Virus record (IMG/VR): IMGVR_UViG_3300043409_001561
Reading direction: 5' to 3' (one strand)
Length of the DNA stretch: 64,000 bases
Source: a virus
Positions 2,754 to 45,177 of the stretch are shown piece after piece (positions within the stretch are counted from its first letter, which is position 1; every line of letters starts with the position of its first letter). Under the pieces are notes generated by a model. That model was not told the DNA's origin, did no database searches, and worked only from the letters and a program-made list of their open reading frames with translations. A program made the translations under genes and the position numbers.

Positions 2754-2778
2754 CTAAGTAAAAAGTATTAGATAAAGG

Positions 2779-2806
2779 CAAAAAAAATGGGGGACTAAAC
2801 CCCCAT
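2779..2806 (-). terminator. rho-independent terminator (GGGGGTTTAGTCCCCC followed by a T-run on the minus strand)
   Basis: Perfect 7-bp GC stem with a T8 run; lies downstream of the minus gene 2826..3620. Confidence 0.55.
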
Positions 2807-2825
2807 TCATACCGAACCTATTGAT

Positions 2826-4129: not shown

Positions 4130-5965
4130 TTGTATATTATTATTTATATGAGAAAATTAAACAGAGCAGAAATAAGATTTCTTAAATATTTAGATGAACA
4201 TTTAGACGATGTGTTTGATAAAACGTCAGCACTTAAAGTGTTAAGAGATGATTTAGGTTTAGATTCTAAAGAGGCGACACACTTATATAGTGTTTGGTAC
4301 TTCACCAAAGGAGATACAGATTATAGTGAGGTAGAATACGATGATGATAATAGTTTGGTATCCTTTATAAGGAAAATGAGTTCATTTAATAGTAATTCTG
4401 ATAGAGAATCGTATATGGATATGATATATGAAGATGAACGTGAGAAATTAGAGAGAATTTATGGTGAATGGATTAATATTCGTTGTGGTGAATGGAGAAG
4501 TACTGTACCATGTATTGTATGGCATAGTGATCATATCACATTAGAATTAGATTATGATGATTGGAAAGAACATTTTTCGGGATTACATGAACAAAGTTTC
4601 TATATCTATGATAAAGCGTATAGTGATTACGGTAGTGATTCTGACGAAATGAGTGAAGATGAGTTTGACTACGCATATAGTAATGATGAAACTATAGAAC
4701 TTTTTGGAGAATTAGCGTTAATCGTAGGTAAAAATACTTGGCCAGGTAAAGATAATGGGGGGATAACGGAAAAAGATATATCTAATTTTTTAGAAAGTAC
4801 TTTACCATCAGATGTATATGAATCGATAGTTAGTGATTATTTAACTGAACTAGGATATGTAGTTACAAATGCTAGAAATAAATCAACAAGAGAAACTTAC
4901 TCGAATGAAATAAAATATGACGTTAACAAATCCAGTTGTAGTACAAGTAATAATTGTATCGAAATACCATATGATGATTTAATCGAAATAATTAATGAAA
5001 ATGGTTTAGTAAATTTATCTGAATTAATGGACGCTGAAATACAACCAGACGTTGATTTAGAAAATGGTTATTACGATTCTTGGGTAGATGATGATGGTGT
5101 TGATGAAGTAATAACAGAATTTAACAGAACATTAAGAAGATCTATAGATTCAATTATAGAAGATGGTGGAATAGATATTAATGAATTAATAGAAAAAAGA
5201 GAGGGTTTTTATAAAATTATTAAAGATTTAGGTTTTGTTTTAGTATCACCAACAACAAATAAGGGTGATTGGTATAAAAGTAAGGATGATAAAATACATT
5301 TTTATATGAACGATGTAGATTTTGGGGAAGATAAGATTAAATTTACATATGAAGGTAAATCACATTTAGTTCCGATAGAAGATTTAAGTGATTGGTCACA
5401 AGGTAGTGTATTAGATTTAAATGAAAGTGTTAAATACAATAAGATTAAGTTACTGAAAGAGAATAAAGATGTAATAAATAAAATATCGATATTCGATTTT
5501 GATGGTACACTTATGGAGACACCTCATCCAGAGAAGGGTAAGTTATTTTGGGAAGAAACTACAGGTATGAAATATCCTCATATTGGGTGGTGGAGTAAAC
5601 CTGAATCTTTAGATACTAAAGTATTTAACATTAGGACTATAACCCCAACTGTTAAAGCGTATAAGAAAGAAATGGGGGATCCTAATACATTAGTCATTAT
5701 GTTAACAGGTAGGTTACCACAACAACACGATCAAGTGGAAGGTTTATTGTCCTCAAACGGTATTTACTTTGACGAGTACCATTATAAAGGTAACGGTGAT
5801 ACTTTAGGTAGTAAATTAAATACTATTAGAACATTATTAAGTAAATACCCAACAGTTGAGTCCATTGAGATGTGGGAGGATAGAGAACCTCACGCAATTG
5901 AGTTTGAGAAATGGGGTGAAGAAAATGGTGTAACTATAAAAGTTAATTTAGTTTTAAAGAAGTAA
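4130..5965 (+). CDS. large acidic protein with a C-terminal HAD-superfamily phosphatase domain (polynucleotide 3'-phosphatase-like)
   Basis: C-terminal FDFDGTL (DxDGT, HAD motif I) followed by a region of HAD-like length. The N-terminal roughly 430 aa is D/E-rich. Confidence 0.5.
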   Translation: MYIIIYMRKLNRAEIRFLKYLDEHLDDVFDKTSALKVLRDDLGLDSKEATHLYSVWYFTKGDTDYSEVEYDDDNSLVSFIRKMSSFNSNSDRESYMDMIYEDEREKLERIYGEWINIRCGEWRSTVPCIVWHSDHITLELDYDDWKEHFSGLHEQSFYIYDKAYSDYGSDSDEMSEDEFDYAYSNDETIELFGELALIVGKNTWPGKDNGGITEKDISNFLESTLPSDVYESIVSDYLTELGYVVTNARNKSTRETYSNEIKYDVNKSSCSTSNNCIEIPYDDLIEIINENGLVNLSELMDAEIQPDVDLENGYYDSWVDDDGVDEVITEFNRTLRRSIDSIIEDGGIDINELIEKREGFYKIIKDLGFVLVSPTTNKGDWYKSKDDKIHFYMNDVDFGEDKIKFTYEGKSHLVPIEDLSDWSQGSVLDLNESVKYNKIKLLKENKDVINKISIFDFDGTLMETPHPEKGKLFWEETTGMKYPHIGWWSKPESLDTKVFNIRTITPTVKAYKKEMGDPNTLVIMLTGRLPQQHDQVEGLLSSNGIYFDEYHYKGNGDTLGSKLNTIRTLLSKYPTVESIEMWEDREPHAIEFEKWGEENGVTIKVNLVLKK

Positions 5966-6931: not shown

Positions 6932-8059
6932 TTATAATATATGGTGGAAATTATCTACTACAAAATAACTTTGGTTGTCTATATCGACTGTCATTAAGTG
7001 CTCAGTATTTAACGCATTGCTAATCATCTCTTTTATCATACCCATCTCATCAAATTGTATGAGTCCGTCATCTATTGCTTCACTTATTGTCATTTCCGAT
7101 TCATTAACATAATCAATTGGGTTTTCTTTATACTCATCCTCTAATTCATCAAATCTATAATGAAGATACATATTTTTTATGTCCTCATCAGAAATTTCAC
7201 TATCTCTAAGATCGTCAATATCAGATTCTAAATCAGAAATGTATTGTGATATGTTATGATAATCTAGATTTAGTTCACTTAATTTAGTTTCTATTTTATT
7301 TAAATACTTTTCGAATCTATTATAATCTTCATCATCACCTTCTATCTCTTGTTTAATAACCGCCCTTTCAGATTCTAAAGATTCTATTTTTTTAAGTAGT
7401 GAATTCATTTTTTTTTCTTCTAATTTTAATTCACCTTCTAAATCTAATATCATTTCTCTATTGTTTTCGATTTCTTCTAATGTATTACCATCATCTATAT
7501 ATTCTAATAAATTATCAATCGATTTATACCCTATCTCTTCTTGAATCTTCTCATTGATGTTATAGTTTAAAGATTCTTCATCTAAAACAATATATTTTTC
7601 TATCAGTGGTCTTCTATACCCACTAAATTCGTTCTCATACATTTTTTCTCTAATACTACGAACTAGGTCATCATATGTACCAACTTCATATATCCCACCA
7701 TTCTCAATAAATTTATAAATTTTTAAATCATAAACATCACCTCTAAAAATAAAAAATTCTGGTACAACTCCCCATAATTTTGATATCGCTCTAACTTGTC
7801 TACTATATCTATCTTCAGAAGTTAATTCCCATTCTATCAATTCATCATATGTTTCATCATCCTCTATGATATTATTTTTATATAACTTAATAACTCTACC
7901 TATTAAATCTCTATCATCTATATGTAAATCATTAACCAAAACTTTATATATACTTTCAGGATTTCTAGATACAAGATTACTATGTAAATAATTAAGTAAT
8001 TTTAATTCAACCTTATTAACGTAATCAACATTTTCCGATATTAATTTTATTAATTTCAT
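6932..8059 (-). CDS. acidic coiled-coil protein, member of the N-terminal (L/I)xE-tag family
   Basis: Starts MKLIKLISEN; highly D/E-rich. Confidence 0.45.
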   Translation of the reverse strand: MKLIKLISENVDYVNKVELKLLNYLHSNLVSRNPESIYKVLVNDLHIDDRDLIGRVIKLYKNNIIEDDETYDELIEWELTSEDRYSRQVRAISKLWGVVPEFFIFRGDVYDLKIYKFIENGGIYEVGTYDDLVRSIREKMYENEFSGYRRPLIEKYIVLDEESLNYNINEKIQEEIGYKSIDNLLEYIDDGNTLEEIENNREMILDLEGELKLEEKKMNSLLKKIESLESERAVIKQEIEGDDEDYNRFEKYLNKIETKLSELNLDYHNISQYISDLESDIDDLRDSEISDEDIKNMYLHYRFDELEDEYKENPIDYVNESEMTISEAIDDGLIQFDEMGMIKEMISNALNTEHLMTVDIDNQSYFVVDNFHHIL

Positions 8060-8928
8060 TCTATATATTTTTCTATATCATTTAAAGTTATTTCATTACC
8101 GTTGATTACGTCAATAATTTCATTTACTTTATTATTAAACTCCTCTTCGTAATCTACTTGAATAGTTTCCACATACTCCTTATCAAGAGTCATATAAATG
8201 TTTTTACTATTCCTTTCAAAAAAATCATCAACGTCACTATTTACCCATTCTAATACATCCGTAGCAATAACCATATAACTAATCTCTTCCATCTGGTAAT
8301 AATGATCTCTAGTGTGTTGTTCGCCAGCACCATCACAATAATCACAAGATACTTTACCACTACCATCGCACTCACCACAAGTTTCATTTCCTGCACCTCT
8401 ACATTCACTACATTCTATTTCTTGTTCTTCACCTTCCTCATCTGTTTCTATTTCAGAACCAGAACCACCACAATAACCACATTCTAAATTACCTTCACCA
8501 TCACACTCACCACATGATACATCTCCATCACCATCACAGTCTCCACATCGGTATGACTCTTCGCGATAATCCTCTTCTATATTTGGACTAGTACAAGAAA
8601 TGAATGTTAATCGGAACCCTTCCCCTGTTGAAATTCTATCAGTTAAAAAGTTGTTAACATCTATATTGATAAGATATAAAAATACAAGGTTTTTGGTGTC
8701 TTTATTTTCTAAAGATAACTCATGTTTAAAAAAATTTACTAATCTTTTATATTGGTTACTGTAAATGATTGATGTGTCTGAAAAACAATCGTCACAATAT
8801 ACTTTTTGCCAAAAAAAATCTTTTAAATCTGGTTCCGAATTAGATAACATGTTTAAACATTTTCGATAAAAAATATTATCTAAATTAGATTGGTATGAAC
8901 TTTCGTTAATTATATTAATAAACTTCAT
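8056..8928 (-). CDS. acidic protein with six CxxCxGxG zinc-finger repeats (DnaJ cysteine-rich-domain-like)
   Basis: The repeats CGDCDGDG, CGECDGEG, CGYCGGSG, CSECRGAG, CGECDGSG and CDYCDGAG are visible in the translation. Confidence 0.5.
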   Translation of the reverse strand: MKFINIINESSYQSNLDNIFYRKCLNMLSNSEPDLKDFFWQKVYCDDCFSDTSIIYSNQYKRLVNFFKHELSLENKDTKNLVFLYLINIDVNNFLTDRISTGEGFRLTFISCTSPNIEEDYREESYRCGDCDGDGDVSCGECDGEGNLECGYCGGSGSEIETDEEGEEQEIECSECRGAGNETCGECDGSGKVSCDYCDGAGEQHTRDHYYQMEEISYMVIATDVLEWVNSDVDDFFERNSKNIYMTLDKEYVETIQVDYEEEFNNKVNEIIDVINGNEITLNDIEKYIE

Positions 8929-9255
8929 TTATAACTTTTTTACTTTTACTGTTAAATCCCCACTCCCTTTAATTACTCTATGATATACACCTTTAGGTAT
9001 TAATGTTCTTTCAGTTAATGGTTTAGGTAGTTCGTTATCAATCTGGATCATCCAATCGGTATCTCCCACACTCTCTACAATTCTATCTTCCTTGTCTCTG
9101 TGCCACACTAATTCACTACTACCCACACTTTCAGAAAATTTTCTAACGTGATAACCATCTACAATATTTTCACCAAAAGGGAAATCCATCTTATCTCTTT
9201 TTACGACCTTGACAATGTGCCCTTTGTGAAAACCCTTTTGGGTTATTACAGTCAA
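8929..9255 (-). CDS. hypothetical protein (probable start at the internal Met, about 9189)
   Basis: ORF track. The 65-nt overlap with the upstream gene disappears if the start is MDFPFGEN. Confidence 0.35.
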   Translation of the reverse strand: MTVITQKGFHKGHIVKVVKRDKMDFPFGENIVDGYHVRKFSESVGSSELVWHRDKEDRIVESVGDTDWMIQIDNELPKPLTERTLIPKGVYHRVIKGSGDLTVKVKKL

Positions 9256-9577
9256 TAGACTTTTTATATTTTTGTGACCACTTTTCTTCTAACATATCTG
9301 AAGACTTTTTTTCACCTTCTAATTTATTCATAAAGAAATCAAATACTTGATCAATATTAACCTTTGCTTCAGTTATATGATCATCTGCCCAATCATGCCC
9401 ATTGTTTAAAATGTCATTTACTGTATTAGGATCAAATTCTTTAATCATAATATCTAATTGCCTTCTCATTTGAGTTAGGTTACTGAAAAACATATAGTTT
9501 TCACCTTTAGATTCTTCATTTAAAGTTTCTCTTACTATTCTATAAAGGTCCTTTTCTGTTAATGTTACTTTTTTCAT
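9191..9577 (-). CDS. hypothetical protein, member of the N-terminal tag family
   Basis: Starts MKKVTLTEKDLYRIVRE. Confidence 0.4.
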   Translation of the reverse strand: MKKVTLTEKDLYRIVRETLNEESKGENYMFFSNLTQMRRQLDIMIKEFDPNTVNDILNNGHDWADDHITEAKVNIDQVFDFFMNKLEGEKKSSDMLEEKWSQKYKKSIDCNNPKGFSQRAHCQGRKKR

Positions 9578-9594
9578 ATTTTATTTTTTTTTAT

Positions 9595-11163
9595 TTACCA
9601 CCAAGTTCCTCCACCTGACAATCCTAATTGTTTTGCGTATCTTGGTAATCTACAACTCCAGTAACCTGCACTACATTTATCATTTTTCTGAGGGCAATTA
9701 TGTCTGTCTGAAAATGCCTTTCTAGCCTTAGGGTCTCTAAGTTTAACTGCAAGATTACCTCCACCTGACTTAGCCCCAAAAGAAACTTTCTTAACTTTAT
9801 CGTTACACATAACATAAACATAAAATTTCTTAGAACCACCTCTTTTAGGTTTACTAAGTTCTACTTTTTTTCCTTTATATTCTGCCTCATTTAAATTATA
9901 TTCCTCATTTGGTATATCTAACCACACTAATTTACCTTCATATATTCCTTGTTTACCTATATCTGTTTTAATAATTTCTAAATCATTATGAGAAAGATCG
10001 ACTCCACCTTTTTGATATACTTCCCTAACCTCATTGATAAGGTTGAAAAAGGATTCACTACCATACCTATATACTGTTTCTGTCAGAGGTATTTGATTAT
10101 CAATGTGATATTTTAAACCTTCACTTATAATAGATCTACTTTCTGTTATTAACATTCTATCGTAGTTTAAAGACTCATTCTTTTTAGATTTGTACCCTTT
10201 AACTTTAATAGGACTAGGTGTTTGACCTTTACCTGATTTACCATCTGTTTTTTCTCTTTCTCTCTTACGTCTACATGCAGAATCTTTAGACTCTTGACTC
10301 ATGTTCGCCGCCACACTCTTTGATCTACAAACTGGATACCCACCTTTATCAGAATCACCTCTACCACATTCAGGATGTCCACCACCTTCTTTTTTTCTAC
10401 AAATGTTAACCCAAGGACCATTAGGTTGTTTACTACCTTTTGGTTTTTTCTTTGTTCCAAACCAAACCGCCAAATCTTCATGTATTTCTATATCGTGAAA
10501 TGAATCTAAATCTTGTACCATTTCAGGTGACCAAGACTCATTAGTTTTACCAGAGCAATAACTCCCACTACATCTTTTTTTACCATCTAATCCCGCAATT
10601 GTACCTTTACAAACTTGAACTGCGTGTCCATTAGCGTATGCAGAAGGATAAACATCGTATGTAGATTTTGCAGAACTTATACCTCTAGCACAAAGTTTAT
10701 TAGATTTTTTCTTTTTTCTTTCATCTAATCTTTCTGTATCTTCCTCATCTTCTTTCTCATTACTAGATGGCATTATACTTATACCATATTTGTTTAATAT
10801 CTTCTCAAGTGCAATTGGGATTGCCATAGATACTGCACCCATACCCATAACTGCAACTATCTTCGCAATATCTTTAGATTGTGCCTTTAAAAACTCAATA
10901 TCCTTTTCAGAAACCTCTTTTTTAGATAGTAAATCACCTAAAATCTTTACCGCTTTAACAGTTTCACTTTTTTCTCTTTTTGCTATCTTAACAAAATTTT
11001 TCCATGAGTTAATCATATCATCTTTTTTGTTATTTAAAAAAGATTTCATTTTTTCACCAAACTCATTAACTACTTTAGGTTCTTCTTCTGAAAATAATCC
11101 AGTTGACTTATTATCAAACCTCATTTCATTAAATAGTTTTTTTAATTTTTCTCTATCTATCAT
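9595..11163 (-). CDS. Lys/Cys/Gly-rich 522-aa protein of unknown function
   Basis: ORF track. Contains an internal MLITESRSI tag-like motif. The C-terminus is GGGTWW. Confidence 0.45.
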   Translation of the reverse strand: MIDREKLKKLFNEMRFDNKSTGLFSEEEPKVVNEFGEKMKSFLNNKKDDMINSWKNFVKIAKREKSETVKAVKILGDLLSKKEVSEKDIEFLKAQSKDIAKIVAVMGMGAVSMAIPIALEKILNKYGISIMPSSNEKEDEEDTERLDERKKKKSNKLCARGISSAKSTYDVYPSAYANGHAVQVCKGTIAGLDGKKRCSGSYCSGKTNESWSPEMVQDLDSFHDIEIHEDLAVWFGTKKKPKGSKQPNGPWVNICRKKEGGGHPECGRGDSDKGGYPVCRSKSVAANMSQESKDSACRRKREREKTDGKSGKGQTPSPIKVKGYKSKKNESLNYDRMLITESRSIISEGLKYHIDNQIPLTETVYRYGSESFFNLINEVREVYQKGGVDLSHNDLEIIKTDIGKQGIYEGKLVWLDIPNEEYNLNEAEYKGKKVELSKPKRGGSKKFYVYVMCNDKVKKVSFGAKSGGGNLAVKLRDPKARKAFSDRHNCPQKNDKCSAGYWSCRLPRYAKQLGLSGGGTWW

Positions 11164-11171: not shown

Positions 11172-12260
11172 TTAATCTATTCTATATATATAATAATATT
11201 CCCCATTGTATCTTTCATAACTTTCATTACCATCATAAGATGCTAATGTGACACCTCTATCTTCATTTTCAGCCAAATAAGACTCTAATCCTGACTCATC
11301 AAAATCGTAGTAGTATCGTATTGCATCTTCTTTAGACAACCCAAATTCGTCAGTAAAATAAGATAAACCACCATCTATTACCCTTTCTCTTATCTCTTCA
11401 TCATATTTTTCAATCAACTCCTCTCTAGCAGTATCAACTAAACTATCTAGTTCAGATTTCTTATCTTCTAATTGACCCCCTAAAGTATCCATTTCAGAAC
11501 TTAATTCTCTCATTTTAATAGTTACATCGTCAATAGCTGAATCGTTTTCACCCTCTTCATTATCTTCTTCTAGATCACTCATCTCATCGTCTAAATCAGA
11601 TATTTCTGATTCAATCTCCTCAATTCTATATTCGATATTACTTATTTGTTCCTCAAATTCATCTTTATCGTATCCTGCTTCAGAAATTATATCATCATCA
11701 TCCATATCATCTACCCTATAATTTGCTTCTTCAGATGCGAAATGACTAAGACTATAATCATTAAGTTCGATATAGTCTTCAATTAGTGATGTATCGATAT
11801 TATCATACCCACCTTGATTGTCTACCCATCCATCAAAATAATTCTCCATTGCCGATGCAACATCACTATCTGTCCCAACTGCATATTTTTCGTCATCTTC
11901 AATAGTACGTAAAACTTTTAACCCATAGTGTTCTTCTGATTCATCTTCTATCATAATTGGAGGTAAATCTAACCACTCCGCTAAAGCTAAATGTTCTGCC
12001 CAATAAATAGAAATGTCATCAATATCATCTAAATCTGAATCTGTAACCCCTTCATAATTACTATCTTCATTAAAATTGTTTACAAATAAATGTAACAATT
12101 CTAATTTTAGTGTCATATCCTCAATATTCAAAGTTTTTGTTAAAAATCCCCATATATCAGAAACATCATCAGTCTCACCCAAAGAAAGTGTCATTGCCCT
12201 AAGAACTCTTTTATGTATTGGTAAAATACTATTTTCAGTTATAAGTTTACTTAATTTCAT
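11172..12260 (-). CDS. acidic protein, member of the N-terminal tag family
   Basis: Starts MKLSKLITEN; extremely D/E-rich. Confidence 0.45.
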   Translation of the reverse strand: MKLSKLITENSILPIHKRVLRAMTLSLGETDDVSDIWGFLTKTLNIEDMTLKLELLHLFVNNFNEDSNYEGVTDSDLDDIDDISIYWAEHLALAEWLDLPPIMIEDESEEHYGLKVLRTIEDDEKYAVGTDSDVASAMENYFDGWVDNQGGYDNIDTSLIEDYIELNDYSLSHFASEEANYRVDDMDDDDIISEAGYDKDEFEEQISNIEYRIEEIESEISDLDDEMSDLEEDNEEGENDSAIDDVTIKMRELSSEMDTLGGQLEDKKSELDSLVDTAREELIEKYDEEIRERVIDGGLSYFTDEFGLSKEDAIRYYYDFDESGLESYLAENEDRGVTLASYDGNESYERYNGEYYYIYRID

Positions 12261-12334: not shown

Positions 12335-12523
12335 ATGTTAATTGTTAATGTCAAAGGTGGCAATATAGAAAGAGCCTTAAAAGAACTTAAAGGAAAGTTC
12401 ATAAAAACAAATATTGCGAAGGAATGTACAAACAGAAAAGAGTACGTAAAAAAGTCTATTATAGAAAGACAACAAGTACAAAAGGCACAGTACATTCAAA
12501 ATAAAAAAAGAAATAACGATTAA
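12335..12523 (+). CDS. rpsU: 30S ribosomal protein bS21
   Basis: MLIVNVKGGNIERALKELKGKF...KKSIIERQQVQKAQYIQ matches the bS21 family pattern (M-IV-V-NIE-ALK-FK-KF-KT...KPS..R...A.Y.Q). It resembles the Bacteroidota type as recalled. Confidence 0.7.
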   Translation: MLIVNVKGGNIERALKELKGKFIKTNIAKECTNRKEYVKKSIIERQQVQKAQYIQNKKRNND

Positions 12524-13018
12524 ATGGAAAAAGGAGTTTTAAATTTATTGAACGAACAAATATGGTTCGAAAATAGAGCGTCTCATTATTATTTAAACCT
12601 ATCGGTTTTATGTGAGTCAAAAGGTTTTAAAGGTATATCTAAATTTTTTAGAGAACAGTCTAATGAAGAAAGAGAACATATGTTAAAGATATGTGATTAC
12701 ATTTTAGAACGAGATGAAAAACCAATTATTCCGTCAAATACGTTTTTAGATGATAGTGATTTAGATTTCGATAACATCTTAAAGATATTTGAAGATAGTC
12801 TTTTTAACGAAAGAGAAATAACTAATTCATTTCATAAAATTATCTTAACTTGTAGAGAATTAGGGGATTTCACAACTGAAAACTTCATCCAATGGTTTAT
12901 AGAAGAACAAAGAGAAGAAGAATCTAAATTTAAGTCCTTAATTGATGAATTAAGGATTATAGGTAGTAACACCACAAGTGGGTCTGCGTTATATTTATTT
13001 GATAAAAATATTTCTTAA
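12524..13018 (+). CDS. ftnA: ferritin (bacterial FtnA-like, ferritin-like diiron fold)
   Basis: LLNEQI..E..ASHYYL and EEREHMLK motifs. The C-terminal NFIQWFIEEQREEESKFKSLIDEL parallels E. coli FtnA [24 protein letters not shown]. Confidence 0.7.
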   Translation: MEKGVLNLLNEQIWFENRASHYYLNLSVLCESKGFKGISKFFREQSNEEREHMLKICDYILERDEKPIIPSNTFLDDSDLDFDNILKIFEDSLFNEREITNSFHKIILTCRELGDFTTENFIQWFIEEQREEESKFKSLIDELRIIGSNTTSGSALYLFDKNIS

Positions 13019-13237: not shown

Positions 13238-15193
13238 TTAAAATGGTCTATTGATATTTATAATGGGAGTTCTATTTTCAACTACCTCTTCTGTTGGTAA
13301 ATCATCTACACCCCAGTATTCTCCTATCATATCTTGTTCTACTTCAGGTACTTCTTCTAATCGGATGTAAGGGTTATGTACCGCATTTATCTGGAAAATT
13401 GATGTCATATTATTTTCACTACTTTCATCTTTTAATGATATTAAAAATCCCCTATTTAATAGTTCTATATCCCCAAAAGATTTTATTTTTTTATCGTACC
13501 CATCAATAAACCTCTTTTTATTTATTTTATTAACCAATAGATTACCAATAGTCTTATGGTATTCAGTAGTTTCTTTATTACAATACGATAATATCTGAAT
13601 CATTCTAAACATTAACTGATTATCCTCTAATTCTATTTCCAACGCTGACATATTATTAGGTGTGATAATCACAAATATTTTAGTCTTACCACTTGCAATC
13701 TTCAATTTATAATTCTGAGCATCATTATTAATACAGTTCTTAAGTTTATTACCTGCCCATCTAATATTCAACTCAGAAGTTAACTCCTTAATTTTTATAT
13801 CATATGGTAGGTTTAAGTCATCAAAAACTATCGGTTCAATTATATTGGTTGAATATTTTTCTTTTTCTTTATCTAATTCTTGTTTCATATTTTCATATGT
13901 AGGTTTAATCAAAATATTCCTACTTAATAATGATTTTTGTAGTAATGGTGATACCCATTCTCCATCTGAATTAAATAATTTATTAATACTCTTTACAAAA
14001 TTATAGGATTCTTGTGCATTCATTTTAAATTTAAAAATGATATATAGTAACCATCTTTCAGAATCTACCATTTTATCAATATATTGTATATGTGATAAAT
14101 CAAAATCACAATTATGGTATTGGTTATTTGTTAGACAAAGCATCTTAGAGAAATGACTATTTTTTAATATCAATTCCGCCTTAAACTTTTGTTTCTTGTT
14201 AATATCATTTTTAGTTAAATTATATGCCCCCATAAATGTTAACGGGTTAAATGATAATTGTTCTAAAATACCAAATATTAGTTCATTCTTTTTATTATAT
14301 TTTTTAGGTGTTAATGACCATATAATATCATTATATTTTGCCCAATTACCTAATACCTCTGTTGGTATAGTATATTTGGGGTTTAACCACTTAACACTTT
14401 CAGGAATTACTGCGTCATTAGGATTAGACCTATAACCCCAAGTAGATTTCTTATGATCAAAGTACTTAATCAATGAAAAATACTCCTTCAATTTAGAATA
14501 GTATTTCATATACATATCTTTATACTTAGAACCAAAATAGATACCAAATGAACGTCTAGACATTCTAACGATATTCTCAACGATTAAGGGTTGACTTAAT
14601 AACTCCATACATGAATCTACATTGCAAAAACAATTTAGTTCATCCATCTTTTTAAACAATCTTATTGCAGTATGTGCAGGTGTGTATATCGCAGTAACCT
14701 CTAATTGTTTATTTTCTAAAAAACTTTTAAAGTCCTCAGTATATATAAGAATGTTAGTTGTTAAATCAATACCAACTTGACAACAATTAAAATCGAACCC
14801 ATTTAAAATGTATTCATAATCTGTTTTGGGCGAAGACAGTGAAGAATTCTTCCTAATATAAATGTTATTCAGATACCCATCTCTCTCTACTTTAACTATT
14901 TGGTATGTGGTGTTAGTATCATACGCCATTTTAGTAACCATATACCCATCACCTTCAATGTTCAATGAGTTAGTTCTAACTGGTGCATTTGACGATGGAC
15001 TATCATATCCCTTATCCTCAATAAATATATCTAAATCGTTTATAGGGTAATTACCACCCCAAACCATATTTAAGATAGTATTCGCCACTGCACCACCAGC
15101 CAAAAATCCACTACTAGGGATATTGTCATACTTACTCAATTCAATTAGTATCTCACTAACTAAAGATTTTTTTTCTAAAACATTATTCATCAT
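13238..15193 (-). CDS. large hypothetical protein, possible nucleotidyltransferase-fold N-terminus
   Basis: FLAGGAVANTIL...NDLDIF resembles a pol-beta-type NTase G[GS]...DxD motif. Weak evidence. Confidence 0.35.
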   Translation of the reverse strand: MMNNVLEKKSLVSEILIELSKYDNIPSSGFLAGGAVANTILNMVWGGNYPINDLDIFIEDKGYDSPSSNAPVRTNSLNIEGDGYMVTKMAYDTNTTYQIVKVERDGYLNNIYIRKNSSLSSPKTDYEYILNGFDFNCCQVGIDLTTNILIYTEDFKSFLENKQLEVTAIYTPAHTAIRLFKKMDELNCFCNVDSCMELLSQPLIVENIVRMSRRSFGIYFGSKYKDMYMKYYSKLKEYFSLIKYFDHKKSTWGYRSNPNDAVIPESVKWLNPKYTIPTEVLGNWAKYNDIIWSLTPKKYNKKNELIFGILEQLSFNPLTFMGAYNLTKNDINKKQKFKAELILKNSHFSKMLCLTNNQYHNCDFDLSHIQYIDKMVDSERWLLYIIFKFKMNAQESYNFVKSINKLFNSDGEWVSPLLQKSLLSRNILIKPTYENMKQELDKEKEKYSTNIIEPIVFDDLNLPYDIKIKELTSELNIRWAGNKLKNCINNDAQNYKLKIASGKTKIFVIITPNNMSALEIELEDNQLMFRMIQILSYCNKETTEYHKTIGNLLVNKINKKRFIDGYDKKIKSFGDIELLNRGFLISLKDESSENNMTSIFQINAVHNPYIRLEEVPEVEQDMIGEYWGVDDLPTEEVVENRTPIININRPF

Positions 15194-16585: not shown

Positions 16586-17011
16586 TTAAGTTAATTGGTT
16601 TGCGGGTCCTCTAGCAGGCTCAACCGACCACGGTGAGTTATCTATTGGATTCGCAACACCCCTATTTACATCTTTAAGAGGCCAAACAGAAGTGGCTCCA
16701 CCAGCAGGTGCACTTGTACCTTCATCTTCATCTAATATTTCTTCATCAGTATAATCATCAATACCAATACCATATTCAGTTACGACAAGTCCGTATCCAC
16801 CTTCTTTATCATAATACCCTAAATAGATATCATTATCATCATACACTACTGTTTCGTATGCATTACTATCAAACCTAAGTCTTTTAGGTTCACCATTAAC
16901 CCATTTAAGTATTTTCTTATACCAACTTTTAGGATCTTTGATTGTTTCACCAAATTCCCTAATTAGTATTTTTTTATATTGACTTTCTGTAATTATTATT
17001 TTCATCACCAA
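16586..17011 (-). CDS. tandem paralog 1 of the N-terminal tag family (MKIIITESQYKKILIRE...)
   Basis: Conserved N-terminal roughly 17 aa with a divergent C-terminal region. Confidence 0.5.
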   Translation of the reverse strand: MVMKIIITESQYKKILIREFGETIKDPKSWYKKILKWVNGEPKRLRFDSNAYETVVYDDNDIYLGYYDKEGGYGLVVTEYGIGIDDYTDEEILDEDEGTSAPAGGATSVWPLKDVNRGVANPIDNSPWSVEPARGPANQLT

Positions 17012-17355
17012 TTTCTTTCTTTATTGTTAATAACATTTAGCAATTTAACTTTTATGTTTTTATTTCCAGTCATATCCATTATTTCCCCTTTTATATCATA
17101 GAAAAAACTACCTACATCTGCATTAGAAAAAATACAATCAATATAAATTATTAAACCAATTTCATTATCAAAAGAAGTTGCAACTTCGACATTTTCTACT
17201 ATATCCAATATTTCACAATCAACATCTTCATCAGCATAATTCCAATCCTCATCTTCTGTAGCGTGTTCACACTTATCCCTTAAATTATTTAATGAGATAT
17301 CAACTATTTTTTGATAAACAGTTTTAAGTTGGTTTTCAGTTATTAAAACTTTCAT
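17005..17355 (-). CDS. tandem paralog 2 of the N-terminal tag family (MKVLITENQLKTV...)
   Basis: Same N-terminal motif; overlapping stop/start with neighbours. Confidence 0.5.
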   Translation of the reverse strand: MKVLITENQLKTVYQKIVDISLNNLRDKCEHATEDEDWNYADEDVDCEILDIVENVEVATSFDNEIGLIIYIDCIFSNADVGSFFYDIKGEIMDMTGNKNIKVKLLNVINNKERNW

Positions 17356-17933
17356 TCTATTAATTTTATATAGGATTTATATTGATCTGGCGTCCAATCA
17401 ATTGAAAAATCATTTAAAGTATCTTTAGCCATATGCCTCATAAGTTCTGCATCACCCAAATCCCAATCCAAATCAGGAAACTGATTGGGGTATGTGTCCA
17501 CTAACTCTATATCATTAAAATTTCGATCTCTAATTTTAGAAATGACATTTTTTAACGCCTCTTGACGTGATCCAGCCCTAACAGTAATTTCATAATCTAA
17601 AAATGATCTAGCAGTAATTACAGTTGGTAAGTTAGCCTTTATTACGTAAGTACCTTGAAATTCCAATGGGGTATTTAAAAATGTTTCATATTCCTCATCA
17701 GGTAAATCTTTAAATGTTTTTTCATAGTTATGTACTATTGTAGTTGCATCAACATCACTCAAATCCCAATTAAACATTAAATCTTCAATAGTTTTATCAG
17801 TATTAGTATAAATATTTTTTAATGCCCTCATAATTCTAATAACTTTTGGGGTAATTAAATCTCCAACAGACGATGATTCAGTATCCTCTTTAAATAATTT
17901 TTTATATTGTTTTTCAGTTAATTTAATTTTCAT
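17352..17933 (-). CDS. tandem paralog 3 of the N-terminal tag family (MKIKLTEKQYKKLFKE...)
   Basis: Same N-terminal motif. Confidence 0.5.
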   Translation of the reverse strand: MKIKLTEKQYKKLFKEDTESSSVGDLITPKVIRIMRALKNIYTNTDKTIEDLMFNWDLSDVDATTIVHNYEKTFKDLPDEEYETFLNTPLEFQGTYVIKANLPTVITARSFLDYEITVRAGSRQEALKNVISKIRDRNFNDIELVDTYPNQFPDLDWDLGDAELMRHMAKDTLNDFSIDWTPDQYKSYIKLIE

Positions 17934-17934
17934 C

Positions 17935-18321
17935 TTAAACGGTTTTTGTTAAAGTTAGATCTACACTAGATGATTTAATTGTGAATGTATTTAATTGTTT
18001 TTTAACCTGTGAAATTATATCATTCATTTGAGACGTATCAATATTAAAAGTTTTACCTGTAGTATCTTTTACCCCATAACCATAACCATCTTCAGTCTTC
18101 CATATATTTTTGACCAAAACTCCACCATCATAAAATAAAGTGTCAACCTTTAATTTATAAAAATAAACCATACCTTTATATACGACTTTAAGTTGTCCAG
18201 AGTATTTACCATATTTCGGATCATCCCAATTAATAGGTACTGCACTAACCTTAGCGTTGGAAACGATAATAGTTTCTATAAGTAAATTATTAAATTGACT
18301 TTCTGTTAATCTAATTCTCAT
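17935..18321 (-). CDS. tandem paralog 4 of the N-terminal tag family (MRIRLTESQFNNLLIE...)
   Basis: Same N-terminal motif. Confidence 0.5.
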   Translation of the reverse strand: MRIRLTESQFNNLLIETIIVSNAKVSAVPINWDDPKYGKYSGQLKVVYKGMVYFYKLKVDTLFYDGGVLVKNIWKTEDGYGYGVKDTTGKTFNIDTSQMNDIISQVKKQLNTFTIKSSSVDLTLTKTV

Positions 18322-18941
18322 ATCTTTATCTCTATATCATTGTAATCTATTTCTTCATCACCAAATGATTCATTAGTAAAGTCCCAGTCAATCTCCCAGT
18401 CAATATTAGTTTCATCGGAATCAATTCTTCCCATTCTATCTTCAATTTCAACATTACCATCACCAATTTTACCAATAAATTCTTTTATATTTCTAGCATA
18501 ACCATAAGCGTCACCTGTAGAACTACCACCTACGGTACCTGTGTGGTAAACAGTTGCAGGGTAGTTAAATTTACCATAAAATTCTAAAGGTTTGCCAATC
18601 AAAGATTTCCAATCTCCCGTTTCAGAAGCCATAACAATATCGTCCCAATATACACTACTATAGTTATGTGTTAATACTACACATTCTCCTTCAGTAAAAT
18701 CAGTTAATGTCATAATCTCCCTCACAATTTTTTTAAAAGTACCATTAGAGATATTAGTACTTAAATAACTCAAATTAGGTATAAGTGATTCGTCATTTTT
18801 TAATGTTACAAATATTTTTGCGATAAAAGGATCAATAACATTTTTTATGTTAGGGAAATTTACCATACCATCAAGAAAAGATTTATTATCTTCAGTTATT
18901 AATCTCCTATATTGACTTTCTGTAATAACTATTTTCATCAA
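18318..18941 (-). CDS. tandem paralog 5 of the N-terminal tag family (MMKIVITESQYRRLITE...)
   Basis: Same N-terminal motif. Confidence 0.5.
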   Translation of the reverse strand: MMKIVITESQYRRLITEDNKSFLDGMVNFPNIKNVIDPFIAKIFVTLKNDESLIPNLSYLSTNISNGTFKKIVREIMTLTDFTEGECVVLTHNYSSVYWDDIVMASETGDWKSLIGKPLEFYGKFNYPATVYHTGTVGGSSTGDAYGYARNIKEFIGKIGDGNVEIEDRMGRIDSDETNIDWEIDWDFTNESFGDEEIDYNDIEIKI

Positions 18942-22022: not shown

Positions 22023-22658
22023 CTAGTTATGTTTACAATTTTCATTATGGTATCTATTAACGTGTATTATTGAGACTTCTAACCCACATACAGTACAAGA
22101 TATTTTTTGGTATGGTCCTCTCGGATTTTTATGTTTACCTTTTGGTTTTTTCATTTTTTCTTTACTTTCTTCAGTGTGTTTGTACCCTTTAATTTTATTA
22201 ATAACATCCTGTGATCTCTTAGTCCCTAATAATTTTTTTCTTATCTTTTCTTTTGTTTCTTCACTTCTTGGTACACCAATACTATGTTTTGTTCTTTTTT
22301 CAATTAACTCTTTTGATTGCTTTATCCCCGTATGTGACACACTTGATTTAAGTTTAGTTTCATCGGAGGCAGCACCACTTTTATCTGTAGTTTTTGTTAA
22401 AACCAAATTTAAACCGTTATTCAATACATCATAATGTTCTTGCCAAAATCTTTCTCTATTGTTTAATTCACAAATTAAACATTCTTCAATTATTTCAAAA
22501 TTATGTTTTTCAACGCCATGACTAATTAATGATGAATATAATTTACATTGTTGTTTACATTTTAATTTTTTATAACTTTCAAATCTTCTTAAAATATCAA
22601 TTGATTGCCCTATATAGACTTTACCTGAAGGTGACGTTATTTTATATATTCCAACCAC
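22023..22658 (-). CDS. GIY-YIG homing endonuclease with a C-terminal zinc finger (free-standing, mobile)
   Basis: GIYKITSPSGKVYIGQS...RF..Y motif. Lys-rich NUMOD-like repeats. C-terminal CTVCG...HVNRYHNENC. Confidence 0.75.
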   Translation of the reverse strand: MVGIYKITSPSGKVYIGQSIDILRRFESYKKLKCKQQCKLYSSLISHGVEKHNFEIIEECLICELNNRERFWQEHYDVLNNGLNLVLTKTTDKSGAASDETKLKSSVSHTGIKQSKELIEKRTKHSIGVPRSEETKEKIRKKLLGTKRSQDVINKIKGYKHTEESKEKMKKPKGKHKNPRGPYQKISCTVCGLEVSIIHVNRYHNENCKHN

Positions 22659-24283: not shown

Positions 24284-25096
24284 TTATTTATTTTTACAAT
24301 TATCAAAATGCCATCTATTCATAATACCAACACCACCTTCTTTATCACAATATGGACAAATTATTTTTTTACTACTTATTCCCTTAAATGGGCTACGTTT
24401 CCCTTTTTTTGATTCACTGATTTTTCTTTTAGTCTCTTCACTTTTGTTTTTACCAGGATTATTCATCGTCCATTTTTTTCTTTTAATCTCACGTGTTTCT
24501 TCACTTTGATTTTTTCCATAGTCATTACCTTTTAATTTCAAACTCAATTTTTTTTTGTGTTCTTCACTATGATAATGTTTTCCACTCTTACTATCACTAA
24601 TTTTTTTTCCTATAATTTTTGCCTTATCTTCACCAAATCTTTCTTCAAATGTTTTCCCTTTATGTAACTTTGATAAATGTTCTCCTATTGCTTTATGTCT
24701 TTTTACCCCCTTCTTTGATTCAGATATTTTTTTATTTCTATTTTTCTTATCTTCCTCACTCATATCTTCCCATCTTTTTTTTTGAGATTTTGACATTTTA
24801 TGTAAGACATTTTTAGTGAAAATTATCTCACTCCCTCTTGCGGCATTATAGTATTTTTCATCACGTATATCAATTTCTTTTAAAATCCCCTGTTCGTATT
24901 TTAAACAATCATTTTTAGAACCAAAAAATAAAATCTCACGATCCCAATTATTTTTTATATCATAAAAATCATCCCAAAATTCTTTATTATGGGAAGAAGA
25001 TACGTATCCATCATTTATATCACCTTTATGATAACCAATGTAAATTTTACCATTATTTAAATTTACCCATTTATAAACAAAAGCCTCTTTATCCAT
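24284..25096 (-). CDS. GIY-YIG homing endonuclease (inserted between the RNA ligase fragments)
   Basis: GKIYIGYHKG...GYVSSS motif. Lys-rich repeats. C-terminal CPYCDKEGGVGIMNRWHFDNC zinc finger. Confidence 0.75.
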   Translation of the reverse strand: MDKEAFVYKWVNLNNGKIYIGYHKGDINDGYVSSSHNKEFWDDFYDIKNNWDREILFFGSKNDCLKYEQGILKEIDIRDEKYYNAARGSEIIFTKNVLHKMSKSQKKRWEDMSEEDKKNRNKKISESKKGVKRHKAIGEHLSKLHKGKTFEERFGEDKAKIIGKKISDSKSGKHYHSEEHKKKLSLKLKGNDYGKNQSEETREIKRKKWTMNNPGKNKSEETKRKISESKKGKRSPFKGISSKKIICPYCDKEGGVGIMNRWHFDNCKNK

Positions 25097-25880: not shown

Positions 25881-27482
25881 TTAAAGTGGTAAGGTAGTAA
25901 AATCTATTTTATTATTTTTATCTCTACTAAAGATGATATGTTGTGCCCTACCATCATTATGGATGATAACATGTGTCTGTAACCAACCACTAGGACCATT
26001 ATTATACCCAACTCTTAGTTTTGTACTCGTACCTACTGCCAATGCCCCATCTTTACGTCCTGGTGAGTGATAATGTCCTACAACAATTTTAGTATTCAAT
26101 TTACGAAATTGTTGTAAAGAACCTCTACTACCATTAGATCCAACGTCACCATGTTGCCCTAGTTCCCAATTCTTCACTTTGTAAGAATCATTTCTACCTA
26201 ATGTAATAAATTTAGGGTATCTCTCATTGATGATGTCAGGTATTACACCTTTAACGTCACTAGGATTTTCACCGTATTGTTTTAAAAGTCTGGAACTTAA
26301 ATCCATATACAATGGTGCGTTTTTAAATGTAGGTTGTTTTTTCCAATCCTCATTTTTTAACCATCTATCTACAAAGTCATCATGATTTGATCTAACTATA
26401 ACCACATTTTCAAAATCACTAAATCTATCTAGTTGATCCATCATAGTGAATATTTCTTTACCTAAATCATTAGTCCCATTCATTTCTTTACCATATTGTA
26501 CAAATGGATCTTTCATCTGGTGGTGACTTATAGAGTCTCCATCAAATACATCATGTAGAATAACATGTTTAGGGACTAAATCTACCATTAAATCAAATGT
26601 AGATTCTAATACATCTTCATCGTGATGTCCGTAGTGAAGGTCACCTAAAATTATCGCAGATACGGATGAATTTTTATTAACGACACCTTTCTCTACTCTA
26701 TTATATAAGTCTGAAAAATTACCACTCTTATCATCGGCAGTTACTTGTCTAACAAAAAACGTATCTTCATCTTTAATTTCCACAATAACAAAACCAAAAG
26801 TATGATGGAATTCACCTTTCTTACCTGATTTAGAATCAGTGTAATTCTTTTTAGTTATTGATCCTGTCGTTAACATCATCTTAGGTTTTTGTTTAACTAA
26901 AACAGGTATTGTCTCCATATGTACCTTTGGTGAACCAAAAATACAAGAATTAATTCCACTCAAACCTTGTAATCCTGTCATAGGATCGACTGCGGTTGGT
27001 TGTATTTTAACATCTGATAGAATAGAAACATATTTATGTATGTCATGTCTATTAGCATCTAAGTACTTAACTATCTTACTATCCCAAAATTCGTTATTTT
27101 CTTGATTACTAGTCCATACAGATGTCGGATTTTTATATCTACCCGCAATAACATGTATATCTGCTCCCAAATGATTTGCGTAAGCCTCCATATTGGTGAG
27201 TAATCCGTTATGGACAGGTGTATTATTTTGTGCCCAAGTAATTAAAAATATCTTTTTATCTTTATCATACTTTTTTAATTTGGCAGCCTCAAATTGTTCC
27301 GACTCTTTATCTACTTTCTCTTTGAAATTAAATTTCTCCGAACACCATTTTCTTATAGTCCTTTCCGATCTATCGAAATACTCAATTAGAATTGACATTC
27401 TCTCATCCCACTTTAAGTTTTTGTCAGTGTAGATGGAATAAGCATGTTCTATGTCTTTTTCTGTTACATCTTTAAATTTCAT
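25881..27482 (-). CDS. large metallophosphoesterase-domain protein
   Basis: GDLHYGHHD, SNHDDF and GHYHSPG motifs (calcineurin-like). The N-terminal roughly 250 aa is of unknown function. Confidence 0.55.
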   Translation of the reverse strand: MKFKDVTEKDIEHAYSIYTDKNLKWDERMSILIEYFDRSERTIRKWCSEKFNFKEKVDKESEQFEAAKLKKYDKDKKIFLITWAQNNTPVHNGLLTNMEAYANHLGADIHVIAGRYKNPTSVWTSNQENNEFWDSKIVKYLDANRHDIHKYVSILSDVKIQPTAVDPMTGLQGLSGINSCIFGSPKVHMETIPVLVKQKPKMMLTTGSITKKNYTDSKSGKKGEFHHTFGFVIVEIKDEDTFFVRQVTADDKSGNFSDLYNRVEKGVVNKNSSVSAIILGDLHYGHHDEDVLESTFDLMVDLVPKHVILHDVFDGDSISHHQMKDPFVQYGKEMNGTNDLGKEIFTMMDQLDRFSDFENVVIVRSNHDDFVDRWLKNEDWKKQPTFKNAPLYMDLSSRLLKQYGENPSDVKGVIPDIINERYPKFITLGRNDSYKVKNWELGQHGDVGSNGSRGSLQQFRKLNTKIVVGHYHSPGRKDGALAVGTSTKLRVGYNNGPSGWLQTHVIIHNDGRAQHIIFSRDKNNKIDFTTLPL

Positions 27483-28506: not shown

Positions 28507-28750
28507 TTGTTTTATTTTATCAAAGATATAAATAATATTTCAATCTGCCAAATTTTTTGGTTATTTATATTGGTTATAAATAAGGTGATAGTGATGGAGT
28601 ACCCGTCTCGCTCCAATCTTAAGTGCTTAATCGTAGTTTTACGAGGCCTCGGCACTGTCCTTTTCAGGGGGTGATGAATTCCTGATCCACTCTGGATTGT
28701 CGACATCCGTTGAGTGGGGAAAACCACTATCAGTATTTTAATTGTTTATG

Positions 28751-28824
28751 TGGTCCTTGTTGGAATCGAACCAACCACCTACGGTTTATGAGACCGCCGC
28801 TCTAACCGAATGAGCTAAAGGACC
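28751..28824 (-). tRNA. tRNA-Met/Ile2 (anticodon CAT)
   Basis: Manual fold: acceptor GGTCCTT/AAGGACC, D-arm GCTC..GAGC, anticodon loop CTCATAA, T-loop TTCGATT. Confidence 0.7.
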
Positions 28825-44304: not shown

Positions 44305-44370
44305 AATAAACGTTTTATAACATCAAATATAGATATTAATTTCTATATAAACAAATTTTTTTAAAAATAG

Positions 44371-44445
44371 TACCAAAGGTGAGATTCGAACTCACAAACC
44401 TTTGTTTCTAAGACAAAGAGGTATACCGATTCCCGTCACTTTGGC
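44371..44445 (-). tRNA. tRNA (anticodon TAG; Leu-like but with a short variable arm)
   Basis: Acceptor GCCAAAG/CTTTGGT, anticodon stem TTTGT/ACAAA with loop CTTAGAA, T-loop TTCGAAT. The D-arm is irregular. Confidence 0.5.
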
Positions 44446-44451
44446 ATTTTG

Positions 44452-44524
44452 AGCAGGTAGAGAGAATCGAACTCTCGTCCTCTGATTGGAAGTCAGACAT
44501 AATAAGCCACTATACGATACCTGC
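44452..44524 (-). tRNA. tRNA-Gly (anticodon TCC)
   Basis: Acceptor GCAGGTA/TACCTGC, anticodon stem TCTGA/TCAGA with loop CTTCCAA, T-loop TTCGATT. Confidence 0.65.
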
Positions 44525-44768: not shown

Positions 44769-44774
44769 AAATGG

Positions 44775-44849: not shown

Positions 44850-44881
44850 ATTTTTAATTATACCGAATTCGGTATAATTAG

Positions 44882-45090: not shown

Positions 45091-45095
45091 AATTG

Positions 45096-45169: not shown

Positions 45170-45177
45170 ATTTATTG

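Follow-up and report, generated by a model that had tools for sequence, protein, structure and literature searches.

An N-terminal leader shared by unrelated proteins of uncultured phages and its possible role as a capsid-targeting propeptide

The DNA analysed here (the window) is the 64 kb IMG/VR virus record IMGVR_UViG_3300043409_001561, which has a G+C content of 29% and carries nearly all of its genes on the minus strand. At 16586-18938 on that strand, it contains five closely packed genes, here named A to E, in which neighbours overlap by 1-4 nt (at likely ATG starts) and all of the predicted proteins begin with M[KR][IV]x[LI]TE[SNK]Q. With at least two genes located elsewhere in the window, A to E share the longer N-terminal sequence M-K-I-x-(I/L)-T-E-(S/N/K)-Q-(L/Y/F)-K-x-L. 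This sequence, here called the leader, is the subject of this report. The genes of the array are:

Gene A, 16586-17005, minus strand: 139 amino acids (aa); leader MKIIITESQYKKILIRE; body unrelated to those of the other array genes; orthologs in loci L003, L048, L102, L111 and L059
Gene B, 17005-17355, minus strand: 116 aa; leader MKVLITENQLKTV; acidic body
Gene C, 17352-17933, minus strand: 193 aa; leader MKIKLTEKQYKKLFKE; paralog of E
Gene D, 17935-18321, minus strand: 128 aa; leader MRIRLTESQFNNLLIE; beta-rich body
Gene E, 18318-18938, minus strand: 206 aa; leader MKIVITESQYRRLITE; paralog of C

The DNA pattern ATGARRRTNNNNWTWACWGAAARNCAA matched the window at five positions, which are exactly the starts of A to E, and was not found in any of 100 dinucleotide-preserving shuffles. 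When all six frames of the window were scanned for [LIV]TE[SNKD][QED], nine matches were returned, eight of them within the first 10 residues of an open reading frame (ORF) and one internal. Relative to internal positions, and taking some 86 genes and 16,000 codons, the motif is enriched approximately 150-fold near N-termini. Altogether, seven or eight strict copies of the leader and three or four variant copies are present among the approximately 86 window genes, so the motif is not a generic feature of the proteins of this phage; an earlier note, made from the sequence alone, had named a generic motif as an outcome that would count against its interpretation. The density of strict copies in the window is 12.5 per 100 kb. 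The genes outside the array that carry the leader, or a sequence resembling it, are:

Gene F, 9191-9577, minus strand: 128 aa; long-form leader MKKVTLTEKDLYRIVRETLNE (MKKVTLTEKDL); conserved body NYMFFSNL..GHDWADDH..CNNPKGFSQRAHCQGRKK
Gene G, 52456-52950, plus strand: 164 aa; long-form leader MKRIIRLTESELINVVKRVIRE (MKRIIRLTESEL)
Gene H, 6932-8059, minus strand: 375 aa; acidic coiled-coil protein; weak leader variant MKLIKLISEN; paralog of I
Gene I, 11172-12260, minus strand: 362 aa; acidic coiled-coil protein; weak leader variant MKLSKLITEN
Gene J, 8056-8928, minus strand: 290 aa; DnaJ-type CxxCxGxG zinc-finger repeats; weak leader variant MKFINIINESSY; faint PF00684 match on an ortholog
Gene K, 9595-11163, minus strand: 522 aa; basic and Cys-rich; decayed N-terminal leader MIDREKLKKLFNE; orthologs begin MKIKLTESQLKRVLKE
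Borderline gene, 25881-27482, minus strand: 533 aa; its start, MKFKDVTEKDI, fits a loose regular expression, not the full leader

The earlier note had described A to E as five tandem paralogs. The tandem arrangement is as it described, but only C and E are paralogous (blastp, 8.6e-13); in blastp comparisons among the leader-bearing genes of the window, A, B and D had only the leader in common. For the dispersed copies it listed, F and G do carry the leader and the internal copy in K is present, but H and I, which are paralogs of one another (1.5e-17), have only the weak variant MKLxKLI[ST]EN common to both. Gene J is a further carrier of a weak variant that was missing from that list. Searches of Pfam and PHROGs with A to E, F, G, H, I and J returned just sub-threshold matches or coiled-coil noise, and neither database yielded a family for the bodies of A to E. 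The leader of C is kept in 19/19 metagenomic homologs.

In F and G, the leader takes a longer form, MK(K/R)xxxLTE(K/S)(D/E)L..(I/V)V(R/K)..(L/I)xE, which differs from the short form by a 4-residue indel that keeps the helical pattern. A leader profile search of a 5.8-billion-protein set, from which only short proteins were returned, found the G-type leader at the head of the unrelated short proteins P0032-P0035. The F family comprises 3373 homologs, in which either form of the leader, long or short, stands ahead of the invariant body, (R/N)YMFFSNL.., and the linker between them ranges from 3 to more than 20 residues. In AlphaFold2 models of C and F, which are of moderate quality, the leader forms a short helix that makes no packing contact with the body. 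In the model of C (predicted local distance difference test score, pLDDT, 66), residues 1-20 score below 50 and the folded body starts at approximately residue 25. A Foldseek search with this model against BFVD gave no significant match. The model of F (pLDDT 63) is all-helical, with the leader helix at residues 8-19.

The internal copy in K, MLITESRS at 10141-10155, marks the boundary of a C-terminal domain for which other phages have a gene of its own, with a leader, and its I-T-E could be a cut site separating the two halves of the protein. In K, a basic, Cys-rich N-terminal module seems to have been fused to this domain. Flavobacterium phage immuto and L034-like contigs encode the domain as a stand-alone gene, and in Methylophilales phage Melnitz it ends a 650-aa protein that has a different N-terminal region. 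The borderline 533-aa protein matches a region of Maribacter phage Panino that is annotated 'DNA transfer protein'.

Distribution of the leader and turnover of the array

When the leader DNA pattern was used to scan IMG/VR, at least 120 stretches were returned, and 122 of the 128 matches listed (all but six) head an ORF. The matched contigs are up to 287 kb in size and have G+C contents of 25-38%, mostly 27-33%. In 1.15 Mb of sequence around the listed matches, a protein-level regular expression found 244 copies of the leader. Of these, 223 start no more than 25 codons from an upstream stop, and the remainder also look like true starts. The 209 leader-bearing proteins of at least 60 aa fall into at least 91 unrelated body clusters among the matches listed. 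Thus, the leader of the family of nine proteins proposed in the earlier note is real, but it is a clade-wide module found on at least 91 families rather than the mark of a private set.

Pfam assigns only approximately 15 of 86 cluster representatives. The cell-wall proteins among them include Hydrolase_2 (two), PG_binding_1 (two), Phage_lysozyme, GH19 and LysM, and the others include an ECF sigma factor, LRR, MORN, thioredoxin, InPase, L5 gp82-like, Peptidase_M78 and phosphoribosyltransferase proteins. Known domains (thioredoxin, sigma-70 regions 2 and 4, lysozyme, Hydrolase_2) begin after the leader, some of them after a proline-rich linker. Over the clusters, the consensus is M-K-I-I-(I/L)-T-E-(S/N/E/K)-Q-(L/Y/F)-K-(R/K)-(I/L)-(L/I/V) and the leader is approximately 17-22 residues long. 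The (I/L)-T-E at residues 5-7 is invariant, which is partly due to the search definition, and a second [LI]xE is found 3-17 residues downstream of it in 70/91 clusters. Where Ser follows T-E, it is encoded by AGY in 49 cases and by TCN in 45, and the DNA pattern used for ascertainment allowed only ARN at this codon. As both kinds of Ser codon are used, we conclude that selection acts on the leader at the protein level.

When 596 Gb of bacterial and archaeal genomes were scanned, the same pattern matched just 45 times, mostly in short chance ORFs. The genuine matches in cellular genomes are in short, low-GC contigs from bins or single-cell assemblies, and one of these is an IMG/VR viral contig itself. 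The strict leader was not found in the 100 kb of pelagiphage HTVC008M examined or in 50 kb of the low-GC Tenacibaculum phage pT24. The leader is N-terminal, modular and virus-specific. No description of it was found in the searchable literature, where the motif strings returned nothing relevant.

In its relatives, conserved genes for thioredoxin and a small membrane protein lie on one side of the array, and the conserved genes on its other side encode an M42-like peptidase and a PcfJ-like protein. Between these flanks, the gene order varies:

Window and L048: E-D-C-B-A
L003 (scaffold_19): D'-C-B-A; L004 and L005 are likewise without E
L102: C-B-A
L111: E-C(truncated)-A
L027: E'-C'-x-A

Gene E is present in the window, L048 and L019, and absent from L003, L004 and L005, which are 96% identical to the window. 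Comparison of L003 with the window revealed that 617 bp (18307-18923) are missing, with the junction in the region 9620-9640 of L003, and that both breakpoints are inside leader codons, ATGAAAATAGTTATT|ACAGAAAGTCAAT. As a result, the D ortholog in L003 is a chimera with an E-type leader (MKIIITERQF..) on a D body. The same gap was found in L005, with window positions 18322-18907 unaligned. A second indel of a leader-bearing cassette is located between K and F, where a gene encoding a 254-aa protein, MKIIISERQFRRLIK.. (MKIIISERQF..), is present at 9226-9990 in L293 and L295 (the 254-kb and 57-kb relatives, respectively) and absent from the corresponding positions in the window (9578-9594) and in scaffold_19 (L292). 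As the indel breakpoints are inside the leader, we conclude that leader codons serve as a recombination site for the in-frame gain and loss of cargo. The array had been described as a diversification hotspot, and the gain and loss of whole genes at leader breakpoints, together with the variable gene order, agree with this.

The arrangement resembles the hyperplastic regions of T4-like phages and the PeSL shuffling seen there, in which variable genes lie between conserved blocks and recombination occurs at short conserved sequences (PMC4122927). However, the substrate in PeSL shuffling is an intergenic promoter-terminator element (PMC4122927), whereas the breakpoints found here are in the coding sequence of the leader.

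Phage lineage and head module

The contig IMGVR_UViG_3300042868_007959 (254 kb) shares 96% nucleotide identity with the window over the array (L005), and its genes around F and K are syntenic with those of the window (L293). The end of this contig (242,082-253,879; L218) was found when IMG/VR was searched with the prohead protease of a sister contig, L078. It encodes, at 1112-1801 of L218, a protease that matches Peptidase_S77 with 82 bits (cutoff 27) and phrog_207 with 1.7e-39, and that is 32% identical to T4 gp21 (E = 6e-25). The same segment codes, at 1899-3206, for an acidic protein of 435 aa that resembles a scaffold and has many (L/I)xE, and also for a capsid protein of the Gp23 family (242 bits). 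The N-terminal region of the latter, ..ALLNE|STSADSSGSFETVVFPIVRR (..STSAD..), has an L-x-E just before the segment that aligns with mature T4 gp23 (FPIVRR). L078 carries a T4-type portal gene (Portal_T4, 259 bits) and a large terminase (TerL) gene (Terminase_6N). When core proteins of HTVC008M were used as tblastn queries, the portal, protease, major capsid protein, TerL, sheath and polymerase were found in approximately 20 leader-bearing loci. The predicted proteins thus place the phages in a T4-like lineage that has a gp21-type protease and a T4-type head module.

The closest cultured capsid protein is that of Flavobacterium phage immuto. Neither 20 kb of the window (megablast) nor protein E (tblastn) matched any of 50,697 deposited phage records. 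Look-ups of identical proteins, aimed at sequence beyond the ends of the window, yielded either no record or a contig contained within it. Phage pT24 was considered as a cultured relative and rejected, as it shares just the C-terminal domain of K and its neighbour, with no leader in the 50 kb examined.

In all, 87 head-module loci were examined, 80 of them ascertained by the protease alone and the other seven being loci that were ascertained by the leader and also hold head genes. Homologs of F, K and the ribosomal protein S21 are located no more than 10 kb from the protease gene in 16, 33 and 57 of these, respectively. In L112, an F-like gene and a second leader-bearing gene lie between the protease and scaffold genes, and in L009 four leader-bearing genes, K-like and F-like ones included, are directly upstream of the TerL and portal genes. 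The strict leader occurs at 3.6 per 100 kb in L078-like head modules.

The protease family is shared by the L034-like sister clade, in which a shorter leader was found, with an N-terminal helix ending in (I/L)(K/R)E. It is on 28/786 genes, approximately 80-fold above its internal frequency, and marks three head-adjacent families: F-like, K-C-terminal-like and a 470-aa family. None was found in the sampled regions of HTVC008M (100 kb), T4 (40 kb) or pT24 (50 kb). The T4-type portal gene at 106-2541 in L034 is seemingly interrupted by an insertion of approximately 300 aa that has an HNH-like motif, ..HHIDFNKNNNNPNNLQWVGNIDHIKIH.., and is possibly an intein or a homing endonuclease.

Accessory genes, host and habitat

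Other features of the window are:

51835-52235, minus strand: full-length tmRNA; Rfam RF00023, 112 bits; tag peptide ANAYNTEDMMSIPTSITRSAVVEEIELMELV
28750-30467 and 44370-47280, minus strand: two clusters holding 27 tRNA genes
12335-12523, plus strand: ribosomal protein S21; PF01165 on the L003 ortholog
12524-13018, plus strand: ferritin, adjoining S21
60686-62101: DUF2828/DUF7788 protein
57892-58887: full DnaJ
4130-5965: HAD_SAK_1 RNA-repair-type fusion
13238-15193: PcfJ-like protein
22023-22658, 24284-25096 and 49813-50394: three ORFs with GIY-YIG-like N-termini recognised by eye (..YKITSPSGKVYIGQS.., ..YKWVNLNNGKIYIGY.. and ..YLYKHIRKDNGDVFYVGIG.., respectively)

The window encodes thioredoxin, FKBP, DnaJ, a DUF2828 protein and RNA-repair genes. 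As S21 is within 10 kb of the protease in 57/87 loci, its position next to the head module is conserved across this clade. The DUF2828/DUF7788 protein shares 47-51% identity with proteins encoded by Cronobacter phage S13, Citrobacter phage Ci1 and KVP40-like vibriophages, some records of which say 'RNA-binding protein'. The GIY-YIG-like ORFs are probably homing endonucleases scattered among the accessory genes; the L003 ortholog of one of them (24284-25096) has a weak NUMOD3 match.

Hints as to the host conflict. A leader-rich, T4-like contig of 63,985 bp (QCKH01000009.1; L300, identical to L069 and L284, IMGVR_UViG_2716884754_000003) sits in the single-cell assembly 'Prochlorococcus sp. AG-409-L21'. 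On the other hand, L305 (JBIIBC010000032.1), from the same sample as the 254-kb relative, was binned with a Bacteroidia metagenome-assembled genome (MAG). That sample is IMG 3300042868, and a MAG from it has the isolate code ME2000-06-20, which we read as the Lake Mendota series. The 254-kb genome itself carries the identifier Ga0453135_0000010.

Function of the leader

The capsid protein of T4, gp23, loses a 65-residue propeptide, and the T4 internal proteins carry a capsid-targeting sequence, MKTYQEFIAE. Capsid targeting in T4 was reportedly the subject of work by Mullaney and Black in 1996, reviewed in PMC9026906, PMC3012670 and PMC5694885. In the T4 record, the gp23 cut site reads ..GSFLTE(65)|AEIGG and the two sites in Alt read MELITE|LF.. 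and ..EELTE|SV... Mass spectrometry has located the processing of Alt at ITE-6 and LTE-619 (PMC5694885). In T4, unrelated proteins carry capsid-targeting sequences as propeptides of 10-19 residues, which bind the prohead core and are removed by gp21 (PMC9026906, PMC3012670). Processing of IPIII is blocked when the P1 Glu of its capsid-targeting sequence is changed to Asp (PMC9026906). The internal proteins of T-even phages are diverse and defence-related, and the leader is the only part that they share (PMC3012670).

We propose that the leader described here is a widespread variant of a T4-type capsid-targeting propeptide. A newly made protein would dock on the prohead scaffolding core through the beta-like start (MKIII) and the amphipathic helix (ESQLKRLIKE) of its leader. 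The gp21-type (Peptidase_S77) protease would then cut the leader behind its (I/L)-T-E (residues 5-7), on the far side of the Glu, with a probable further cut after the second (L/I)-x-E at the end of the helix, and the leaderless protein would be retained in the head and injected with the DNA. The A to E array would be a hyperplastic cargo locus, in which whole genes are swapped by recombination in the conserved leader codons. Docking, cleavage, packaging and injection are inferred, as is every step beyond the existence of the leader and of the protease, so that the case for this proposal is about evenly balanced.

A number of likenesses support it. As in T4, a short N-terminal leader with (L/I)-x-E precedes unrelated bodies (IPI-III, and the propeptides of Alt and gp24, in T4), the cargo genes lie in variable loci where the leader alone is conserved, and the phage has a gp21/S77 protease, known here through the 96%-identical relative. 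The tripeptides I-T-E and L-T-E in the leader are the same as those cut in Alt (both) and gp23 (L-T-E). The earlier note had equated (L/I)-x-E with the T4-type cleavage consensus, and these tripeptides are established T4 gp21 sites (PMC5694885; T4 record). It had also suggested a search for a prohead protease and a capsid protein with the same motif, and both were found, as Peptidase_S77 and an L-x-E-bearing Gp23, in the 96%-identical contig. Its capsid-targeting interpretation is favoured by these two proteins, the match to T4 cut sites, the modularity of the leader and the hotspot character of the array, but the anti-defence role that it attached to the proteins gained no support. Further points for the proposal are selection on the leader at the protein level, the restriction of the leader to viruses, and the position of F-like and K-like genes near head genes. 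No anti-restriction or anti-defence homology was found for the bodies of A to E in Pfam or PHROG, nor any significant match for the C model in BFVD, so calling them anti-defence effectors has no support from homology or fold; that they have such a function of a new kind is speculation.

There are differences from T4. The leader here spans approximately 17-22 aa, with two candidate cut sites, and both a long and a short form of it exist. At least 91 families carry it, as opposed to a handful in T4, and its cargo includes cell-wall hydrolases, a sigma factor, LRR proteins and thioredoxin. Relative to T4, then, the sequence of the leader, its length and two-site layout, the scale of the cargo repertoire and the breakpoints inside the leader are new. 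The phiKZ-like giant phages (phiKZ gp175, SPN3US gp245) offer a second comparison, as they are also large myoviruses in which a gp21-related protease cuts many head-internal proteins after Glu, and paralogous ejection proteins in them have identical N-termini (PMC5694885). However, their sites are (S/A/G)-x-E, their propeptides are often over 100 residues long and there is no single uniform tag (PMC5694885). The head genes found here are of T4 type (Gp23, Portal_T4, S77).

Several points weigh against the capsid-targeting proposal. The leader is known from gene sequences of uncultured phages, and tblastn of its consensus against the 50,697 deposited phage records gave no match. It has no evident similarity to MKTYQEFIAE, with which only M-K and the terminal x-E agree. 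The S77 protease and the scaffold are in the 254-kb relative and not within the 64-kb window, so that the protease and the window are on separate records, apparently linked by the 96% identity over the region that they share. Near the head modules of the L034-like clade, the strict leader occurs at just 0.68 per 100 kb. Directly upstream of TerL, the position of the small terminase gene in T4, is a leader-bearing gene for a protein of approximately 280 aa (7177-8031 in L078, 4080-4916 in L009, and similar genes in L211-L290) that has no Pfam or PHROG match; as it occupies this position, its identity matters for any capsid-cargo interpretation. In the bodies of leader-bearing proteins, (L/I)xE and (L/I)TE are not significantly depleted (observed/expected 1.05 vs 1.17 and 1.09 vs 1.43, respectively), with controls shifting similarly and counts being small. 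The cargo is very broad, and includes proteins with predicted membrane helices and ordinary cytoplasmic enzymes. Finally, the leader is longer and better conserved (Q, aromatic, K, L/I) than a cut site needs, which points to a specific partner, not necessarily the scaffold.

This last point leads to the alternative that survives best, namely that the leader is a helix for localisation or for binding a partner and has nothing to do with the capsid, addressing proteins to a chaperone, a membrane site, a replication factory or an export route, with (I/L)-T-E incidental. The conservation of Q-[LYF]-K-x-[LI]-[LIV] well past a cut site fits such a helix, as does a cargo that ranges from peptidoglycan hydrolases and PG-binding proteins (periplasm) through membrane proteins to a cytoplasmic sigma factor. 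The phage encodes possible partners in DnaJ, the DnaJ-like zinc-finger protein, FKBP and thioredoxin, and the scarcity of strict leaders near L034-like head genes is also in its favour. However, it leaves unexplained the invariant T-E that matches T4 protease sites, the second (L/I)xE in 70/91 clusters and the head-module synteny of the F and K families. As regards export, Sec and Tat signal peptides are likewise cleavable N-terminal addressing sequences common to unrelated proteins, but neither a hydrophobic h-region of at least 10 residues nor an RR motif was found in the leader, whose consensus MKIIITESQLKRLIKE is charged beyond residue 6. The leader has an amphipathic, charged character, with no hydrophobic core, twin-arginine motif or A-x-A site, and is thus not a Sec or Tat signal. 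On balance, a helix of this kind with no link to the capsid seems unlikely, though it is a serious candidate. Partner binding, which the earlier note had offered as its own alternative, is itself part of the mechanism of T4 capsid-targeting sequences.

The leader might instead be a regulatory propeptide or degron that keeps proteins inactive or unstable until a protease (the phage S77 or one of the host) removes it, with no packaging involved. This would account for the (L/I)xE sites that flank the helix, for the variable linkers between leader and body and for the many cargos that are potentially harmful, such as cell-wall hydrolases and peptidases. We consider it improbable, as the leader is too short and uniform for steric inhibition of more than 90 folds and is detached from the body in the AlphaFold2 models, and the T4 gp21 cleavages cited are all on proteins of the prohead core or shell, during head maturation (PMC5694885).

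Equally little credence can be given to a nucleic-acid element, be it a translation-initiation enhancer, a RegA-like repressor operator over the first nine codons or a recombination handle, of which the peptide is a by-product. The A-rich sequence starts at the start codon, and the 13-nt ACAGAAAGTCAAT is identical in A, D and E and has indel breakpoints inside it. When the upstream regions of 188 leader-bearing and 1048 other ORFs from the window and L008-L127 were compared, the Bacteroidota-type -7 motif TAnnTTTG was present for 1.6% of the former and 10.3% of the latter, a weak result as the second set includes spurious ORFs. This depletion suggests a common expression class, and the leader-bearing genes may be in a different (non-early?) transcription class. 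The T4 late-promoter TATAAATA was uninformative (upstream of 8% of leader-bearing genes and 5% of other ORFs), and a k-mer search for a repeated promoter found no repeat of 14 bp or longer. However, Ser is encoded equally by AGY and TCN, amino-acid substitutions are conservative (I/L/V, K/R, L/Y/F) and the long and short forms differ by an indel of four residues that leaves the helical pattern intact. Recombination at the leader is compatible with a function at the protein level and does not compete with it.

A chance resemblance, produced by AT-rich codon usage where genes begin (MK and then a stretch rich in I/L/K/N), could be imagined in a 29% G+C genome with many MK starts, but it is excluded by the shuffles (five matches observed and none in 100 shuffles, with approximately 150-fold N-terminal enrichment) and by the scan of 596 Gb of cellular genomes with its 45 mostly spurious matches, and the leader is absent from the 100 kb of HTVC008M and 50 kb of pT24.

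Returning to the capsid-targeting proposal, the wider picture that we tentatively draw from it is of a clade of T4-like giant phages, uncultured and represented by hundreds of IMG/VR contigs from freshwater and the sea, in which one leader is a plug-and-play label that loads a fast-changing injected proteome, with cargo swapped via leader codons. Among the proteins so loaded would be cell-wall hydrolases, peptidases, LRR proteins and a sigma factor, together with unknown folds by the dozen. Should the leader be a capsid label, any protein that bears it is a candidate for one of the first phage proteins to enter the cell, the class to which T4 IPI (anti-restriction) and Alt belong. Injected proteins are now mostly found by virion proteomics of cultured phages, and the leader would make it possible to catalogue such effectors, any anti-defence proteins among them, directly from the metagenomes of a clade that has no cultured member. 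Engineered phages meant to deliver proteins could also use a 17-residue leader with two sites as their packaging tag. If the leader has no such capsid role, a new explanation is still needed for an addressing peptide that is specific to viruses and present on more than 90 protein families. If the proposal is correct, the T4 strategy of a conserved leader with variable cargo has been scaled far past the T-even phages, and the codons of the leader double as the recombination site at which the cargo is exchanged.

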